Positions 5,226 through 33,757 of a stretch of 64,000 nucleotides of DNA are shown here, one piece after another. The position numbers were made by a program, and so were the translations under genes. The first letter of the stretch is position 1, and every line of letters starts with the position of its first letter. Below the pieces are notes generated by a model. It saw only the letters and a program-made list of their open reading frames with translations, searched no databases and was not told the origin of the DNA. Source of the DNA: Escherichia coli (GTDB taxonomy: Bacteria; Pseudomonadota; Gammaproteobacteria; Enterobacterales; Enterobacteriaceae); assembly GCF_050920415.1 (NCBI RefSeq), contig NZ_CP169309.1; one strand, written 5' to 3'.

Positions 5226-6338
5226 TTATTTTCCGCTCTTCACTTTGGTCCACGCGCGGGTGCGCACACGGTCGATTTTCGGATCCTGCACTTTCAGAGT
5301 GAACAGCTTCGCACGGACATCCGCAGGCGGGTAAATACCGGGGTTATCACGCACTTCCGCGCTTACCAGCGGCGTAGCTTCTTTGTTCGCGTTGGCATAG
5401 AACACATGGTCAGAGATATGCGCTACGACATCCGGACGCAGCAGGTAATTCAGGAACTGATAAGCTTCGTCTTTATTTTTGGCATCCGCAGGCATGGCAA
5501 ATACATCAAAGAATGCCATCGCCCCTTCTTTCGGAATCGAGAACGAGACATTAACGCCATTCTTCGCTTCCTTCGCGCGGTTTGACGCCTGCCAGACATC
5601 GCCCGCCCAGCCAATAGCGACGCAGATATCGCCGTTTGCCAGGTCGTTAATGTATTGAGATGAATGGAAATAACGAATGTTCGGGCGCAGCTTTAACAGC
5701 AGATCGGTTGCCGGTCCGGTGTAATCATCTGCTTTAGTGCTGTTGGGATCTTTACCGAGATAATTCAGCACGGTAGCAAACACTTCTTCCGGTGCATCAA
5801 GGAAAGAGACGCCGCAGCTTTTCAGTTTTTCCAGATTTTCAGGTTTGAGGATCAAGTCCCAGCTATCGACGGGCGCGTTTTCGCCCAGCACCGCTTTAAC
5901 TTTATCGACGTTATAACCAATCCCGGTCGTCGCCCACATATAGGGCATAGCAAATTTATTGTCGGGATCGTGTTTGGCGACCAACTTCAGCAGTTCCGGG
6001 TCGAGATTCTTCCACTCCGGCAATTTGCTTTTATCCAGCGGCTGGAAAACTCCCGCAGTCAACTGGCGCTCCAGAAAGCTGGCAGATGGAACCACCAGGT
6101 CAAAGCCGGTGCTCCCTGCCATTAATTTGCCTTCCAGTACTTCGTTAGAGTCGAAAACATCGTAGACGACTTTAATACCGGTTTCTTTTTCAAAATTGGC
6201 CACCGTGTCCGGGGCGATATAATCAGACCAGTTATAAATGTGGAGTGTTTTTTGTTCAGCCGCGAGCGTGCCGACAGAGACGGCCATCAGAGCACCCGCA
6301 ACCAGACCCGATAGCCATTTTTTATTTAAGGCGGTCAT
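5226..6338 (-). CDS. potF: Putrescine-binding periplasmic protein PotF
   Basis: Internal start MTALNKKWLSG with signal peptide gives 370 aa; the track ORF has a 50-aa N-terminal extension. Confidence 0.94.
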   Translation of the reverse strand: MTALNKKWLSGLVAGALMAVSVGTLAAEQKTLHIYNWSDYIAPDTVANFEKETGIKVVYDVFDSNEVLEGKLMAGSTGFDLVVPSASFLERQLTAGVFQPLDKSKLPEWKNLDPELLKLVAKHDPDNKFAMPYMWATTGIGYNVDKVKAVLGENAPVDSWDLILKPENLEKLKSCGVSFLDAPEEVFATVLNYLGKDPNSTKADDYTGPATDLLLKLRPNIRYFHSSQYINDLANGDICVAIGWAGDVWQASNRAKEAKNGVNVSFSIPKEGAMAFFDVFAMPADAKNKDEAYQFLNYLLRPDVVAHISDHVFYANANKEATPLVSAEVRDNPGIYPPADVRAKLFTLKVQDPKIDRVRTRAWTKVKSGK

Positions 6339-6624
6339 ATCTCTTTCCTTCTGAAAGTTCGTTAACAAACGAACAAAAGTTGTCACACTGAAAGATATGC
6401 AATATTCGTGCATATTTTTTATCGGCTCGGTGTAAGAAAAGAGAACTCTCTCCCGGCCAGCACTGCTCGCTATATAAAAGCATCGCAAGAATAACTTTAG
6501 CCAGGGTTTGAGACTATAGCTCGGATTAAAAAACGGTATTTAACAAATTTTTATGCGTATTTGCTCTATGTGATAAAGCCAAATCGGCACAAGAGAAGTG
6601 AAATAATCTTTAAGAAAAGGTTAA

Positions 6625-6680
6625 AAACAGCAGATAATTTTGCAGCACGCAGTCACTGCGGCAGCGACTGCGTGCTCGAA
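6625..6680 (-). terminator. Putative terminator hairpin downstream of ybjN
   Basis: Near-perfect 16-bp inverted repeat AGCACGCAGTCACTGC / GCAGCGACTGCGTGCT at 6643-6676, followed on the minus strand by a T-rich stretch. Confidence 0.4.
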
Positions 6681-6688
6681 AGGAGTTA

Positions 6689-7165
6689 TCAGTGGAGGAA
6701 ATAGTTTTCGGTAACGTTGTTTTGCCCTTCATCGTCAGTCGGTAACAGCAGTTGATGGGCATTAGCTTCAAGAATGACCATCGAAATCTGCTCTTCGCTC
6801 TGACGCACGAACCATGCAAACTGCTCATAGGTTACGCCCTGCATAACGGATAAAGACTGGCAAACCACCAGCTTTGGCAGATTATCATCCTGCATATCAA
6901 GAAATGCTTTCACGGTCAGCGAACTGGCATTGATGGCTGATAAATCCGCCGCCAGCGGTAACACGGCTGAAGGTCGAACTTCCGCCATGGCAGAAAACAG
7001 GATCGTGTTATCGATCAGATCGATTTTGGCATCAAAGACACCGTCGAAATTCTGCATATGGGGCAGATGCAGAGCCTGACAGTTATCACATTCAAAAAAA
7101 CTCATCCCCAGGTCATCGAGCCATTGACGCAGCGTATCCAGACCAGGAACGACCAGCGATGTCAT
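6689..7165 (-). CDS. ybjN: YbjN, putative sensory transduction regulator
   Basis: Internal start MTSLVVPGLD gives 158 aa matching recalled YbjN. Confidence 0.9.
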   Translation of the reverse strand: MTSLVVPGLDTLRQWLDDLGMSFFECDNCQALHLPHMQNFDGVFDAKIDLIDNTILFSAMAEVRPSAVLPLAADLSAINASSLTVKAFLDMQDDNLPKLVVCQSLSVMQGVTYEQFAWFVRQSEEQISMVILEANAHQLLLPTDDEGQNNVTENYFLH

Positions 7166-7252
7166 AATTTTGTACAACCTCTTTCGATAAAAAGACCGGC
7201 ACAGCTTACGCAAAAAGCGCAGGCAAAACCATGATCAGTAATGTGATTGCGA

Positions 7253-8155
7253 CTAACCACCCGTTTTCAGGCAATATTCGGTCGTAGCGTGGCGTTCGAT
7301 CCAGCGGATCATTTTACCCGCGATGTCAATACCGGTGGTTTTTTCTATTCCTTCCAGCCCCGGCGACGCATTCACCTCCATCACCAATGGCCCGCGATTA
7401 GCACGCAGAATATCCACACCAGCAACGTCCAGCGCCATCGTTCGCGCGGCTTTTATCGCGATTTCACGCTCCTGTGGTGTGATACTGGCAACGCTTGCCG
7501 CGCCACCTCGATGCAAATTGGAACGAAAATCGCCCTCTTTCGCCCGCCGTTCAATCGCAGCGACCACTTCATCGCCAACAACCAGGCAGCGGATATCGCA
7601 CCCTTGCGCCTCTTTGATATATTCCTGCACCAGAATATGCGCGTTCAGACCGCGAAAGGCGTCAATCACGCTTTCCGCCGCCTGACGCGTCTCCGCCAGC
7701 ACGACACCAATTCCCTGCGTACCTTCAACCAGCTTAACCACCAGCGGCGCACCACCGACCATGTCGATTAAATCGCTGGTATCATCCGGCGAATGCGCAA
7801 TGCCCGTGACAGGCAGGTCGATGCCCTGACGCGCCAGCAGTTGCATCGAACGCAATTTGTCACGCGCCCGGGCAATGGCGACCGACTCATTGAGCGGATA
7901 GCTCCCCAGCATCTCGAACTGGCGCAGTGCCGCCGTCCCATAAAAGGTAATGGCGGTGCCAATACGCGGGATCACAGCGTCAAAATGGGGTAACTTGCGG
8001 CCTTTGTAGTGAATAGAAGACGCCGCAGGATTTATGTTCATGTAGCAAGAAAGCGGATCAAGAATTTCAACCAGGTGACCACGCTGTACAGCGGCTTCAC
8101 GCAGCCGCTTACACGAATAGAGCGTTCCATCCCGGGACAATATGGCAATTTTCAC
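7253..8155 (-). CDS. rimK: Ribosomal protein S6 glutamate ligase RimK (ATP-grasp)
   Basis: 300-aa ORF starting [10 protein letters not shown]; ATP-grasp motifs; matches recalled RimK. Confidence 0.95.
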
Positions 8156-8215
8156 CCTGCACCTCTCTGTCAGACCTGGTCAAAAGCCCGCGTATCATAC
8201 ATCGATGTGGCGGTT

Positions 8216-27320: not shown

Positions 27321-28232
27321 CTATCCTTTAATTTTCGGATCCAGCGCATCGCGTAAACCATCCCCCAGCAAATTGAACGCCAGTACGGTCAAAAAAATAG
27401 CCAGGGCCGGAAAAACAGCGACATGCGGCGCGATAACCATATCCGCTCGAGCCTCATTGAGCATCGCTCCCCACTCTGGTGTCGGCGGCTGCGCGCCGAG
27501 GCCGAGAAACGACAGGCTGGCCGCAGAGATAATCGAGGTACCAATGCGCATAGTGAAAAACACCACGATAGAAGAGACGGTCCCAGGCAGAATATGACGC
27601 AATAAAATGGTCATATCGCTGGCACCAATACTGCGTGCTGACTCAATAAAGGTTTGCTGTTTCAACACCAGCGTATTGCCGCGCACCAGTCGGGCAAACG
27701 CGGGGATGGAAAAAATGGCAACGGCGATAATCACGTTAGCGATGCCGCTTCCCAACACCGCAACAACAGCGATCGCCAGTAAAATACCCGGGAAGGCAAA
27801 CAGCACATCGCAAATGCGCATGATCAGCCGATCCCACCAGCCTTCATAATATCCCGCCAGCAAGCCCAGCAACGTCCCGATCGCCGCACCGATAAACACG
27901 GCAAACACGCCCGCCGCCAGCGAGATTTGCGCACCAACCAGGACACGACTGAAAATGTCGCGTCCCAGTGAATCGACGCCAAACCAGTGCTGCAAAGAAG
28001 GTCCGTTATTCAGATTGTCATAATCAAAATAATTTTCGGCGTCATAGGGAGCGATCCAGCGTGCAAAAATGGCCACCACAATCAATAAAATAACGAACAA
28101 TGCGGCGGTCATCGCCATATGCTGACGGCGAAATCGTCGCCAGAATTCATGCCACGGTGTACGTACCTGGTCAGGTTTAACCAATGGCATGGCGTTTAAC
28201 ACCGCCTGACGTCGCCAGTTAAATATTCGCAT
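27321..28232 (-). CDS. gsiD: Glutathione ABC transporter permease GsiD
   Basis: 303-aa permease ORF; operon with gsiABC. Confidence 0.93.
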
Positions 28233-28234
28233 CC

Positions 28235-29155
28235 TTACTTGTACCTGATAGCCGGGTTAATGGCGGCATAAAGCACATCCACCACTAAGTTGATAAGAAT
28301 AAATTCCAGCGAGAAAAGCAGAATTTCCGCCTGAATCACCGGGTAATCGCGCATTTCTACGGAGTCGACGAGTAAGCGTCCAAGTCCGGGCCAGTTGAAG
28401 ACTTTCTCCACCACAATGGAACCACCGAGTAAAAAGCCAAACTGTAAGCCCATCATGGTCACTACCGGGATCATCGCATTGCGTAACCCGTGTTTGAGGA
28501 TGACCCAGGTTTCGCTCACCCCTTTCGCCCTCGCGGTACGCATATAATCTTCGCTTAAAACGTCGACAAACGATGCGCGGGTAAAGCGCGCCATCACGGC
28601 TGCCACTGCCGCGCCGAGCGTCAGGGAGGGTAAAATGTAGTGCTGCCAACTGTCTGCACCTACGGTGGGTAACCAGCCAAGTTCAACTGAGAAAACCTGA
28701 ATCAACAGTATTCCTAACGCAAATGCCGGGAATGAAATCCCTGATACCGCGATAGTCATACTTAATCGATCCGGCCAACGGTTACGCCAGACAGCGGCGA
28801 TAATACCAGCCCCCATGCCGAACAGCACCGCCCAGGTCATACTGGTAATAGTCAACCATAGAGTAGGCATGAAGCGGCTGGCAATCTCATTGGCAACGGG
28901 ACGACGCGACACCATCGACAGGCCAAAATCGCCCTGTACGGCATTGGTGATATAGTGCCAGAACTGGTGATACAGTGGCTTATCCAACCCCAGTTGTTGA
29001 CGCACCAGCTCGATGACCTGCGCATCGGCTTCTGGTCCGGCAATCAATCGCGCTGGATCGCCGGGCAGCATATGAACAAACAAAAACACCAGCACTGAGA
29101 CAATAAACAGCGTTGGAATCAGTCCCAGTAAGCGTTTGATAACGTAATTAAGCAT
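28235..29155 (-). CDS. gsiC: Glutathione ABC transporter permease GsiC
   Basis: 306-aa permease ORF; operon context. Confidence 0.93.
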
Positions 29156-29172
29156 TCCACTCCCTGCGTTGC

Positions 29173-30711
29173 TTATTGCAAATCGGCGTCTTCAAAGCTG
29201 AAACCGGTGTCTGGCATGATCCAAAAACCAGTCAGGTTTTTACTGTGTGCCGACACCAGTTTTTCGACCACCAGCGGGATCCACGGCGACTCTTGCCAGA
29301 TAATATCCTGCGCCGCCTTATACAAGCGCGCCTTTTGCGCCGGATCGTTGGTTTTCAGCGCCTGGGCAAGCTCGTCATCCACCTGCTTATTGCTGTAAAA
29401 CGCAGTATTAAACAGCGTCGGCGGCCAGTTCTGCGAGGCGAACAGTGGCGATAGCGCCCAGTCAGCTTCACCAGTCGAGGCCGACCAGCCAGTGTAAAAC
29501 ATTCTCACGCCGCTCTCTTTCTGCCCTTTACCTTCAACTTCTGCCGCCCGCTGCCCGGCATCCATCGCCGTTACCTGGGCTTTAATCCCCACCTGCGCTA
29601 GCTGTTGCTGGGTAAATTGCAGCACTTTCTGTGCGGTACTGTGATTATGTGATGACCACAGCGTGGTACTGAAGCCGTTGGGATACCCCGCCTCTTTCAA
29701 TAGTTCACGCGCTTTCGCCGGATCGTAAGGCCACGGTTGATAACTTTGCGCGTAGGCAATACTCGGTGGCACCACACCAGTGGCAGGAACTGCATATCCC
29801 GCAAAGGCCACTTTCACCAGTGCCTGACGGTTGATGGCGTAATTCAGCGCCTCACGTACTTTTGGGTTATCGAATGGTTTCTGCGTCACGTTCATGCTGA
29901 TATAACGCTGCATAATCGACGGGCTGGCCATCAGCTCGATATTTTTGTTTTTCTCCAGTAGCGCCGCTTGTTCATAAGGGATGGGAAAAGCAAATTGCGC
30001 TTCACCGGTTTGCAGCATTGCCGCACGGGTGTTGTTATCCGCCACCGGACGCCAGGTTATGCTGTCCAGTTTGGGCAATCCTGGCTGCCAGTACCCCGCG
30101 AATTTTTTCACCTTCACAAAATCGGTCTGATTCCAGGTATCCAGTTCATACGGCCCGGTGCCAACCGGATGAAAACCAATCTCCTTGCCATATTTTTCCA
30201 GCGCTGCCGGTGAAATCATCGCGGTCGCCGGATGGGCAAGAATGTTAATAAACGCGGAGAACGGCTGTTTGAGGGTAATCTTTACCGTTGTCAGATCGAG
30301 CGCTTCCGTTTTCGCAATATTCTTATACAGGTTATAGCGTTTAAGATGATTCGCCGGATCGCTGGCCCGGTCGAGATTCGCTTTTACCGCCGCTGCGTTA
30401 AAGTCGGTGCCATCCTGGAATTTAATTCCTTCCCGCAATTTCACGGTGTAAGTGAGGCCGTCATCGGAAACGGTATAACTCTCCGCCAGCACGTTTTTCA
30501 GTTTCATCTCTTTATCGAGACCGAACAGCCCCTGGTAAAACGATTTCGCTACGGCCTGAGATAACGTGTCATTCGCATCATATGGATCGAGCGTGGTGAA
30601 GTTCGATCCTACCGCCACCACCACATCTTTGGCAGCGAATGCACAAGATGCCATCAACGCTGTCGCAATGCCCAGCGCCACTAACCCACTACGGTGTACA
30701 GCTCTTGCCAT
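29173..30711 (-). CDS. gsiB: Glutathione-binding periplasmic protein GsiB
   Basis: Internal start [26 protein letters not shown] (signal peptide) gives 512 aa; the 601-aa track ORF is an upstream extension. Confidence 0.93.
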
Positions 30712-30730
30712 TTTATTCTCCGCCTGAATG

Positions 30731-32602
30731 TTATCTACGCATGAATGCGTATTCTGATTGTGGTTGTGCGACGTAATGCCCCGGCCCGACGCATTGCAAC
30801 GAGACGGCTGCAACCTCTTCGCCACGCAGATGAATATTGCTGGGAAGATCGTCCGACAGCAGTACACGCTGCGGTCGTTGTCGGGACGGTTCAGCGACCG
30901 GAACTGCCGCCAGTAATTTACGCGTATAAGGATGCTGCGGATTTTCAAAGACCGCGCGCCGTGGACCAATTTCAACAATTTGCCCGAGATACATCACCGC
31001 CACACGATGACTAATCCGCTCTACAACGGCCATATCGTGGGAGATAAACAGATACGCAATGCCGAAATCACGCTGGAGATCGAGCAACAAGTTGATAATC
31101 TGCCCGCGAATAGAAACATCCAGCGCTGATACGGCTTCATCGGCAATAATCACTTTTGGATTCAATGCCAACGCGCGAGCAATGCAGATGCGCTGTCGCT
31201 GGCCACCGGAAAACTCATGCGGGTAACGCCACGCATGTTCAGGTAACAGACCCACGCGCTCCAGCAACCACGCAACGCGTGCAGCAGCTTCTTTACCTTG
31301 CAATAAACCGTGTACGCGCAACGGTTCGATAATCGAATCACCGATGGTCTGACGTGGGTCCAGCGAGGCGTAAGGATCCTGAAAAATAAACTGAATATCG
31401 CGGCGCAATGCCTGAAGTTTGCCGGGTGAAAGGGTATCGATTCGCTGACCGTTAAAGATAATTTCGCCGCCCTGCGATTCGACCAGGCGCAGCAACGCCC
31501 GCCCGGTAGTAGATTTACCGCTGCCAGACTCGCCCACCAGCGATAGCGTTTCGCCAGGCCAGAGATCAAAACTGACTTTCTCAACGGCATGCACTTCCCG
31601 CGTTACGCGATTCAACAAACCACTGCGCAAAGGGAAACGGGTAACCAGATTACGCACCCGTAAAACAGGTTCGCCATCCACCACCGTCTTCTGCTCGATG
31701 GGTGGTTCCTGTTTCACTGGATGTTCAAGCGATATGAGCGGGAAACGTCGGGGATAATCTCCCCCTTTCATCGCACCAAGCTGCGGGACAGCAGCTAACA
31801 GCGCACGGGTGTAAGGATGTTGTGGTGCATGAAAAATCTGTTTGACGCTACCCGTTTCCACCGCCTCGCCCTGATACATCACCAGTACCCGATCGGCAAT
31901 CTCTGCCACCACACCCATATCGTGAGTGATAAAGATAACGCCCATCGACATCTCTTTTTGCAATACTTTGATTAATTGCAGGATCTGCGCCTGAATAGTG
32001 ACATCCAGCGCGGTGGTTGGCTCATCGGCAATCAGCACCGCCGGGCGGCATGACAGTGCCATCGCAATCATCACTCGCTGGCGCATCCCGCCAGAGAGTT
32101 GATGCGGATAACGTGAAAGAATGGTTTGTGCCTCCGGAATGCGTACCTGATCCAGCATCCGCTTCGCCTCGACCATTGCTTCTTCACGACTGGCGTTTTG
32201 ATGCAGACGAATTGATTCGGCAATCTGTTCACCCACAGTAAATACCGGGTTCAGCGATGTCATCGGCTCCTGAAATATCATTGCCATATCCGCACCGCGC
32301 ACATGGCGCATTTGTGCAGCGCTCTGCTCGCTAAGTTCAATCACTTCGCGAGTGCGCCGCCGCAACAGCATTTGATCGCACTGCACTAAACCGCCCGCCT
32401 GTTCCAACAGGCGCATCAGTGCCAGCGCAGTCACTGACTTACCAGAGCCGGATTCGCCAACAATTGCCAGCGTCTCACCGCGTTGCAGGCTAAAAGAGAG
32501 ATTGCGGACCGCAGCTATTTTCTGCTGGTCCTGCCTAAAGGCAATATTCAGATTTTCAACCGCCAGCACATCACCGGCATCAAGTTCATCACTGTGTGGC
32601 AA
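30731..32602 (-). CDS. gsiA: Glutathione ABC transporter ATP-binding protein GsiA (TTG start)
   Basis: Two ABC cassettes (two Walker A GESGSGKS motifs); recalled 623-aa protein begins at [10 protein letters not shown], which is TTG at 32600-32602. Confidence 0.92.
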
Positions 32603-33554
32603 CGGTGTCCCCTTTTTCACGGTAGATACCGGTGGTTGGCGTATCGCCTGCGTAGCCCCAGGCGCGATACATTCCTTCGGTGTTAAACGGTAGCGCGACA
32701 TTCCCTTCATGGTCGATAGCGATTAAGCCACCGCTACCGCCAAGCGCAGGGAGTTTTTCCATTACTACCCGCTCGCAGGCTTCCGCGAGACTTAATCCGC
32801 CGTAATCCATTAACGCGGCGATGTCATATGCCGCCAGCGCGCGGATGAAGACTTCGCCCGTGCCGGTACATGAAACCGCCACACTGGCGTTATTGGCGTA
32901 GCATCCGGCGCCCACTAAGGGACTATCGCCAACTCGTCCGGGTAATTTATTGGTCATTCCGCCCGTGGACGTGGCTGCCGCCAGATTGCCGTCTAAATCC
33001 AACGCCACGGCACCCACGGTGCCCATTTTCTGTTTTTCATCCAGTGGCGCACCGCTATGGTCGAGGACCATTGCCCCTTCCTCGCGCGCTGCCAGGAGTT
33101 GTTCATAGCGCAAAGGCGTGGAGAAAATCTCCGGCGAGACGCGCTCCATGCCATGAGCAAATGCAAAATTTTCTGCCCCTTCGCCAATCATCATCACATA
33201 CGGGCTTTGCTCCATCACCAGCCGGGCAGCAAGAACCGGATTACGCAGATGACTCACGCCCGCCACCGCACCGGCTTTCAGGGTGTTACCATCCATCACA
33301 CAGGCGTCGAGTTCATGCGTTTCATCTCGCGTAAAGACTGCGCCAATTCCGGCGTTAAACAGTGGACACTCTTCCAGTAGACGCACCGTTTCCGTCACCA
33401 CATCCAGCGCACTTTCGCCCGCTTCCAGCATTTTCTGCCCGGTTTCAACAATGGCAGACAACGCCTCAATGTAGCGTAATTCCTGTTGCAGACTCATCTG
33501 CGCGCGGCTAATTGCACCTGCGCCGCCATGAATTGCAATGACTGCTTTGCCCAT
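32589..33554 (-). CDS. iaaA: Isoaspartyl peptidase / L-asparaginase IaaA (Ntn hydrolase)
   Basis: 321-aa [18 protein letters not shown]; matches recalled IaaA; 3' end overlaps the gsiA start. Confidence 0.93.
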
Positions 33555-33757
33555 AGTATTCGTCCATTAAGGGTGGCTCGCCACTTTTGCTATAAATATC
33601 AGAATTTTTATGAATTACTCATTCAATTTTTGAATATAGAAAGATGGATATGGCATGTAAAGGCAGGAGCCAGCGCTACGCCCGAGGTGGCATACAGTCT
33701 GTGGCGTTTTTCTGACATAATAGGCAAATTCGATTTTGCCTCCGCAGGAGTGTTTTC

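Follow-up and report, generated by a model that had tools for sequence, protein, structure and literature searches.

Gene pairs that overlap within bacterial operons and are translationally coupled typically meet in an ATGA or TAATG motif, with overlaps of 4 or 1 nt. In such pairs both genes lie on the same strand, the Shine–Dalgarno (SD) sequence and the start codon of the downstream gene are contained in the coding sequence of the upstream gene, whose stop codon falls a few nucleotides past the downstream start. The iaaA/gsiA junction of Escherichia coli is like them in these respects, but it is unlike them in that the overlap measures 14 nt instead of 1 or 4, the start codon is TTG, and the coupling is only putative.

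The closest described locus is gsiA of E. coli K-12 (b0829, formerly yliA; U00096.3/NC_000913.3, RefSeq PGAP). The locus analysed here shares with it the gene, the TTG start, the length of 623 aa, the 14-nt overlap with iaaA (b0828) and the gene order iaaA-gsiABCD. The K-12 start has been placed at 867520 in NC_000913.3, which is the identical codon (PMC9825163 Table S2). GsiA of the window, that is, of the whole stretch of 64,000 nt of E. coli DNA that was analysed, differs from the K-12 protein in a few residues (e.g., D11 vs N11 and R23 vs M23), and the start site is unchanged. The codon for residue 23 (32534-32536, minus strand) is AGG (Arg) in the window and in its 100%-identical relative; elsewhere it is ATG (Met) in K-12, O145 and most other E. 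coli, and Citrobacter has Glu, Ser or Ala at this residue. One passage of PMC10355420 describes the gsi genes, in passing, as operonic with iaaA, and another cites, as its ref. 43, the import of glutathione by K-12 YliABCD. The TTG start of gsiA and its 14-nt overlap with iaaA are already known, since they are standard database annotation and the K-12 ribosome profiling has been published. The pair belongs to the general class of operon neighbours that overlap on one strand, with an overlap of less usual length and a TTG start, and this arrangement opens no new question.

Both iaaA and gsiA lie on the minus strand, which the initial annotation had left out. The features of the locus are the following.

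30731..32602, minus strand: gsiA coding sequence from TTG, 623 aa, glutathione ABC transporter ATP-binding protein with two ABC ATPase domains (NF007613; annotation).
32600..32602, minus strand: gsiA start codon TTG, read as fMet (sequence; RefSeq annotation of L001, a genome identical around the site; TTG/GTG invariant in 27 enterobacterial sequences; TetRP peak at the homologous K-12 codon).
32609..32614, minus strand: SD sequence AAGGGG, inside iaaA codons E-K-G (best anti-SD duplex of the in-frame candidates; conserved in four genera).
32589..32602, minus strand: 14-nt iaaA/gsiA overlap, gsiA codons 1-5 over iaaA codons V-A-T-Q-stop (open reading frames, sequence and RefSeq annotation of L001; all 14 columns invariant in 21 distinct sequences).
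32589..33554, minus strand: iaaA, isoaspartyl/beta-aspartyl peptidase, 321 aa (open reading frame; RefSeq annotation of L001).
32603..32710, minus strand: 36-codon upstream extension of the mechanical open reading frame, judged to lie outside gsiA (no usable SD; iaaA-frame substitutions; stops in relatives).
32567..32569, minus strand: GTG at gsiA codon 12, the former 2006 K-12 start, since abandoned (TetRP about 0; weak SD).
27321..30711, minus strand: the rest of the operon, gsiB 30711..29173, gsiC 29155..28235 and gsiD 28232..27321 (transferred from the L001 annotation; ends of the open reading frames agree with the window).
33633..33661, minus strand: candidate promoter of the operon, a sigma-70-like match (TTTACA-17-TATATT) some 80 nt ahead of the iaaA ATG (consensus scan only; 1 match vs 1.1 expected by chance).

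The iaaA frame ends in ...GAA AAA GGG GAC ACC GTT GCC ACA CAG TGA, and the gsiA frame reads ...AAG GGG ACA CCG TTG CCA CAC AGT GAT GAA CTT GAT GCC GGT across its start. The initial annotation had placed this start at a TTG at 32600-32602, followed by PHSDELDAG, and had described a 14-nt overlap with iaaA and a 659-aa open reading frame that begins 36 codons upstream, inside iaaA. Coordinates and reading are borne out on the minus strand: the TTG lies at 32602..32600, the iaaA stop codon TGA occupies 32591..32589, and the overlap spans 32589..32602. The longest open reading frame in the gsiA frame runs from an ATG at 32710 to 30731, the TTG encoding its residue L37. As ATG codons at -36 and -33 and a GTG at -6 also occur in the 36-codon extension, a lone in-frame TTG has little meaning, and it is the SD sequence, the conservation and the published profiling that set this codon apart from the other in-frame candidates. 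The longest open reading frame overcalls the start of gsiB as well, where the mechanical frame at 29173-30978 (minus strand) gives 601 aa from a TTG at 30978 inside gsiA, and the annotated gene starts at 30711 and encodes 512 aa.

Over 601 nt around the site, the window matches E. coli MFDS1022581 (L001) at 100% identity and nearly all other genomes at 95-99%. Of 5426 complete E. coli genomes, 5425 contain the region, and 5131 of these share one identical 57-nt segment at the junction; both of the variants inspected keep TTG. The RefSeq/PGAP annotation of L001 places iaaA at 5347..6312 and gsiA at 6299..8170 (1872 nt, 623 aa), which overlap by 14 nt, and the same gsiA start is annotated in two further E. 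coli genomes. NF007613, the NCBIfam equivalog model for GsiA, scores 1371.5 bits against a cutoff of 1077 and is aligned over its whole length (1-623 of 623) with residues 37-659 in the long open reading frame, the NCBIfam model and the RefSeq calls being mutually dependent evidence. The protein harbors Opp/Dpp-type tandem ABC ATPase domains, as the DppD/F, OppD/F and NikD/E models each match twice, at residues ~48-313 and ~345-627. In the E. coli ExPEC strain NZ_CM172609.1 (L002:2799-4893) gsiA is represented by a 510-aa coding sequence plus a pseudogene fragment, due to a frameshift or an assembly error. In E. coli strain 23CRST011 (L050:90-103), one of the two junction variants inspected, the iaaA codon CAG is changed to TAG, so that IaaA has 320 aa and the overlap 11 nt, with a synonymous CAC to CAT change (His) in gsiA.

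The model proposed here, in which we have high confidence, is that the TTG at 32602..32600 (minus strand) is the start of gsiA, with its SD sequence within the end of iaaA, a 14-nt overlap, a single iaaA-gsiABCD mRNA and probable coupling. The position of the start, the SD sequence and the overlap are established; RefSeq, NF007613, the SD sequence, the relatives and TetRP in K-12 all support the TTG proposed by the initial annotation. Initiation at this codon would give the 623-aa ATP-binding subunit of the GsiABCD glutathione importer, beginning with fMet-Pro-His-Ser-Asp-Glu-Leu-Asp, and AAGGGG with its 6-nt spacer, inside the last iaaA codons, would serve as the gsiA ribosome-binding site. 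The 36-codon extension would be a +1 reading of the iaaA 3' end that by chance contains no stop codon.

Ribosome-binding signals were compared by pairing the 20 nt upstream of every in-frame ATG, GTG, TTG, CTG and ATH with the 3' end of 16S rRNA, from the frame-opening stop (32725) to 28 codons beyond the TTG. The TTG at 32602 has the strongest duplex of the in-frame candidates, of -7.8 kcal/mol, formed by AAGGGG at 32614..32609 and separated from the codon by the 6-nt spacer ACACCG (32603..32608); it is a non-ATG start with an SD sequence in the range of 5-9 nt. The other in-frame ATG and GTG candidates reach -1.5 to -4.8 kcal/mol. Among them, the ATG at 32710 (-36) has -1.5 kcal/mol with a 16-nt spacer, which is unusable, the ATG at 32701 (-33) is abutted by AAGGGA with a spacer of 0, and the GTG codons at -6 and +11 have -3.0 kcal/mol each, the latter with a spacer of 2 nt. 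Folding of 141 nt around the start predicts a hairpin that encloses both the SD sequence and the TTG, with an ordinary energy (z = -1.32). This hairpin was considered as evidence of coupling and set aside, on account of that z-score and because its pairing partners are not conserved in Citrobacter.

Published start-site data are available for the homologous codon in K-12. The tetracycline-based profiling (TetRP) of Nakahigashi et al. 2016 lists yliA (gsiA) as entry 8, where a new initiation site, a TTG, is given 33 nt ahead of the start annotated in 2006; the signal of tetracycline-arrested ribosomes in three samples was 46.3, 140.5 and 70.6 at the TTG vs 0, 0 and 2.98 at the old GTG (PMC4909307 Table S2). 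This site agrees with the 2014 annotation (PMC4909307). In INRI-seq, by contrast, the annotated gsiA start had 0 ribosome-protected reads in each of five in-vitro replicates, with the synthetic transcript at 151 CPM, and the starts of gsiB, gsiC and gsiD were detected in vitro (PMC9825163 Tables S2 and S4); according to the same INRI-seq table, the gsiA start was also undetected by Ribo-RET in vivo. The annotated iaaA start of K-12 is likewise undetected by INRI-seq in vitro and by Ribo-RET in vivo, and an in-frame ATT 15 nt inside iaaA is given as a putative new translation initiation site (TIS) (PMC9825163 Table S2). No GsiA N-terminal peptide figures among the TRAINSPOTTER N-terminomics entries listed, where the IaaA N-terminal peptide is present, and gsiA has no entry in the BMC Biology TIS paper. 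A different gsiA start is indicated by none of these K-12 datasets, one positive profiling set and two non-detections.

The initial annotation had called the overlap consistent with an iaaA-gsiABCD operon, and this wording has the right strength. The genes lie on one strand, no gap exceeds 19 nt (-14, 19, 17 and 2 nt between iaaA, gsiA, gsiB, gsiC and gsiD in the RefSeq annotation of L001), and the only promoter-like site found by the consensus scan is located upstream of iaaA. This match is weak evidence alone, since its number does not exceed that expected by chance. The region that contains it is conserved in Salmonella arizonae, where it lies directly in front of gsiA. No terminator-like site was found on the minus strand at the iaaA/gsiA junction by the scan. 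Thus gsiA would be read, together with iaaA, from a single iaaA-gsiABCD mRNA.

For the comparison across Enterobacteriaceae, a degenerate DNA pattern (DELD, 30 nt, NIAF) was searched in one genome per species and returned 47 loci, 24 of which are enterobacterial gsiA: Escherichia albertii, E. whittamii, two further Escherichia species, about 16 Citrobacter, two Enterobacter and two Salmonella subspecies. Because DELD and NIAF are both required, the sample is confined to orthologues whose N-terminus is conserved, and it includes neither Klebsiella nor S. enterica subsp. enterica. The remaining matches were some 20 chance ones in unrelated phyla, which were discarded, and one E. coli-like contaminant contig. 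That contig (NZ_VLXZ01000061.1, L047, 'Alkalicoccobacillus porphyridii', 411 nt, coverage 1.1) carries an E. coli K-12-like junction and is almost certainly contamination of a Bacillaceae assembly. By eye, the junction of a metagenome-assembled genome (MAG) labelled uncultured Raoultella sp. (L039) is like that of Citrobacter braakii, which suggests that the genome was mis-binned or carries the wrong label. The 24 loci plus L001, L002 and the window make up 27 junction sequences.

The orthologue alignment, named by the initial annotation as a check, upholds the start: all 27 junctions have TTG or GTG at the homologous codon, TTG in all Escherichia and Citrobacter and GTG in Enterobacter and Salmonella. 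In the four genera the SD sequence is kept as AAGGGG, AAGGAG, TAAGGAG or TAAGGGGG, at the same distance within 1 nt, and PHSDELD continues in all 27, though PHS lay outside the search pattern. The Enterobacter and Salmonella genes share with the window this homologous SD sequence, its spacing, the position of the start codon and PHSDELD, and differ from it in their GTG, in a TAA inside the SD sequence and in zero overlap, where the window has TTG and 14 nt. In these two genera the junction reads GAA TAA GG, the iaaA stop lying within the gsiA SD sequence; in Escherichia and Citrobacter it reads GAA AAA GG and IaaA is 8 residues longer (KGDTVATQ). In Enterobacter (L011:1040-1100, L031) iaaA ends in GIYRE-TAA, 11 nt ahead of the GTG start of gsiA. 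The position of the stop and the identity of the start codon co-vary perfectly in the 27 sequences, which may reflect one or two events only. This contrast between genera, TAA with GTG vs AAA with TTG, may not have been described before.

In S. enterica subsp. arizonae and diarizonae (L029:7163-7400, L045) a deletion of about 930 nt has removed iaaA from ~12 nt ahead of its ATG to near codon 310. It joins the intergenic and promoter region between moeA and iaaA to the 11 codons that remain at the iaaA 3' end (DTPGTGIYRE-stop), and with these codons come the gsiA SD sequence TAAGGAG and the GTG start; as a result of this deletion, gsiA stands directly behind the iaaA promoter. The 3' remnant of iaaA was located from the junction sequences, as global alignment with the window misplaced it. 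Since S. Typhimurium is reported to have ybiK (iaaA), the loss in arizonae and diarizonae looks lineage-specific.

It is less settled whether the overlap has a role in translation. The iaaA stop overlaps the gsiA start region on the same strand (32589..32602), and ribosomes that translate iaaA and terminate on it would probably help to load the weak gsiA TTG; translational coupling of gsiA to iaaA stands at roughly an even chance. The strongest alternative, a serious one that falls somewhat short of an even chance itself, accepts the TTG but proposes that it has an ordinary, independent ribosome-binding site, and that the overlap plays no part in coupling. The SD sequence is indeed good by itself, the homologous site in Salmonella arizonae and diarizonae must work without translation of the deleted iaaA, Enterobacter has no overlap, and the local RNA structure is not significant. 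Against it, the isolated K-12 fragment from -30 to ~+120 gave no reads in any of the in-vitro replicates that detected gsiB, gsiC and gsiD, and the native mRNA was positive by TetRP in vivo (PMC9825163, PMC4909307). Moreover, the lineages that do not overlap have the stronger GTG, and Salmonella also the stronger SD sequence TAAGGAG, a hint that the TTG form depends on assistance. A tentative, rather doubtful extension of coupling would make the overlap a derived state of Escherichia and Citrobacter, in which a TAA to AAA change lengthened IaaA by 8 residues along with a GTG to TTG change, making GsiA synthesis depend on iaaA translation through termination and reinitiation 11-14 nt backwards. 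If true, this derived coupling would account for both the silence of the isolated site in vitro and its use in vivo.

A different start codon altogether has been annotated in the past. If gsiA began at the GTG at 32569..32567, 11 codons downstream, the protein would have 612 aa and the TTG would be merely a codon of the iaaA 3' region. GTG is commoner than TTG as a start codon, this one encodes a Val conserved in all orthologues, and it was the curated start in U00096.2 (2006 K-12). Its SD sequence is poor (-3.0 kcal/mol, 2-nt spacer), TetRP gave about 0 there vs 46-140 at the TTG (PMC4909307), and the current K-12 and RefSeq annotations have shifted the start to the TTG. In addition, the codons that it would leave untranslated are conserved as protein in four genera: codons 2-8 (PHSDELD) vary only synonymously (CCA/CCG, AGT/AGC, GAT/GAC, GAA/GAG, CTT/CTG), also where nothing overlaps them, and they are therefore translated in the gsiA frame. 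A start at this GTG is very improbable.

The TTG is also favoured by what lies upstream of it. Among the 21 distinct Escherichia and Citrobacter sequences of the TTG type, no variation occurs in the SD core, in the base that precedes the TTG, in the TTG itself or at any of the 14 overlap positions. The two T bases of this start codon form positions 2-3 of an iaaA Val codon, GTT in all 21, whose neighbouring codons vary, some with amino-acid changes. In the 108 nt upstream there are 37 variable columns, 31 of them at iaaA third positions, which are second positions of the gsiA frame; as peptide, this stretch is 97% identical on average in the iaaA frame, while the extension in the gsiA frame is conserved at 63% (42% at the lowest), at a DNA identity of 86%. 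In Enterobacter the gsiA frame is closed by a TGA 6 codons upstream of the GTG, with no start codon between them but only ATA, and in Salmonella arizonae and diarizonae, where iaaA is absent, it is closed 16 codons upstream. By sequence, then, no codon other than the homologous one could be the start in these two genera and still leave the conserved N-terminus intact. The start at the upstream ATG at 32710..32708, or at the second ATG at 32701, which would give 659 or 656 aa with an extension in the +1 frame of iaaA, is thereby largely refuted and most unlikely: its frame is open and begins with ATG, 17 of the 21 distinct sequences have the ATG at -36, and TetRP, in the part of PMC4909307 that defines its scope, sought new starts at ≤60 nt from annotated ones, so that extra initiation at -108 lies outside its formal reach, but neither ATG has a usable SD sequence, E. 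albertii, E. whittamii, C. braakii and one MAG lack the one at -36, both are by-products of conserved iaaA codons (CAT GAA, AAT GTC), the extension shows the poor conservation and the stops just described, and the GsiA family model begins at residue 37.

The start at the TTG fixes the N-terminus of GsiA, to which a mechanical longest-frame call adds 36 spurious residues and from which the 2006 K-12 annotation had dropped 11 real ones. As the gsiA SD sequence and start codon lie within the last ~26 nt of iaaA (32589..32614), clean iaaA deletions must spare this segment, and the natural iaaA deletion of Salmonella leaves exactly the region with the gsiA SD sequence and start.
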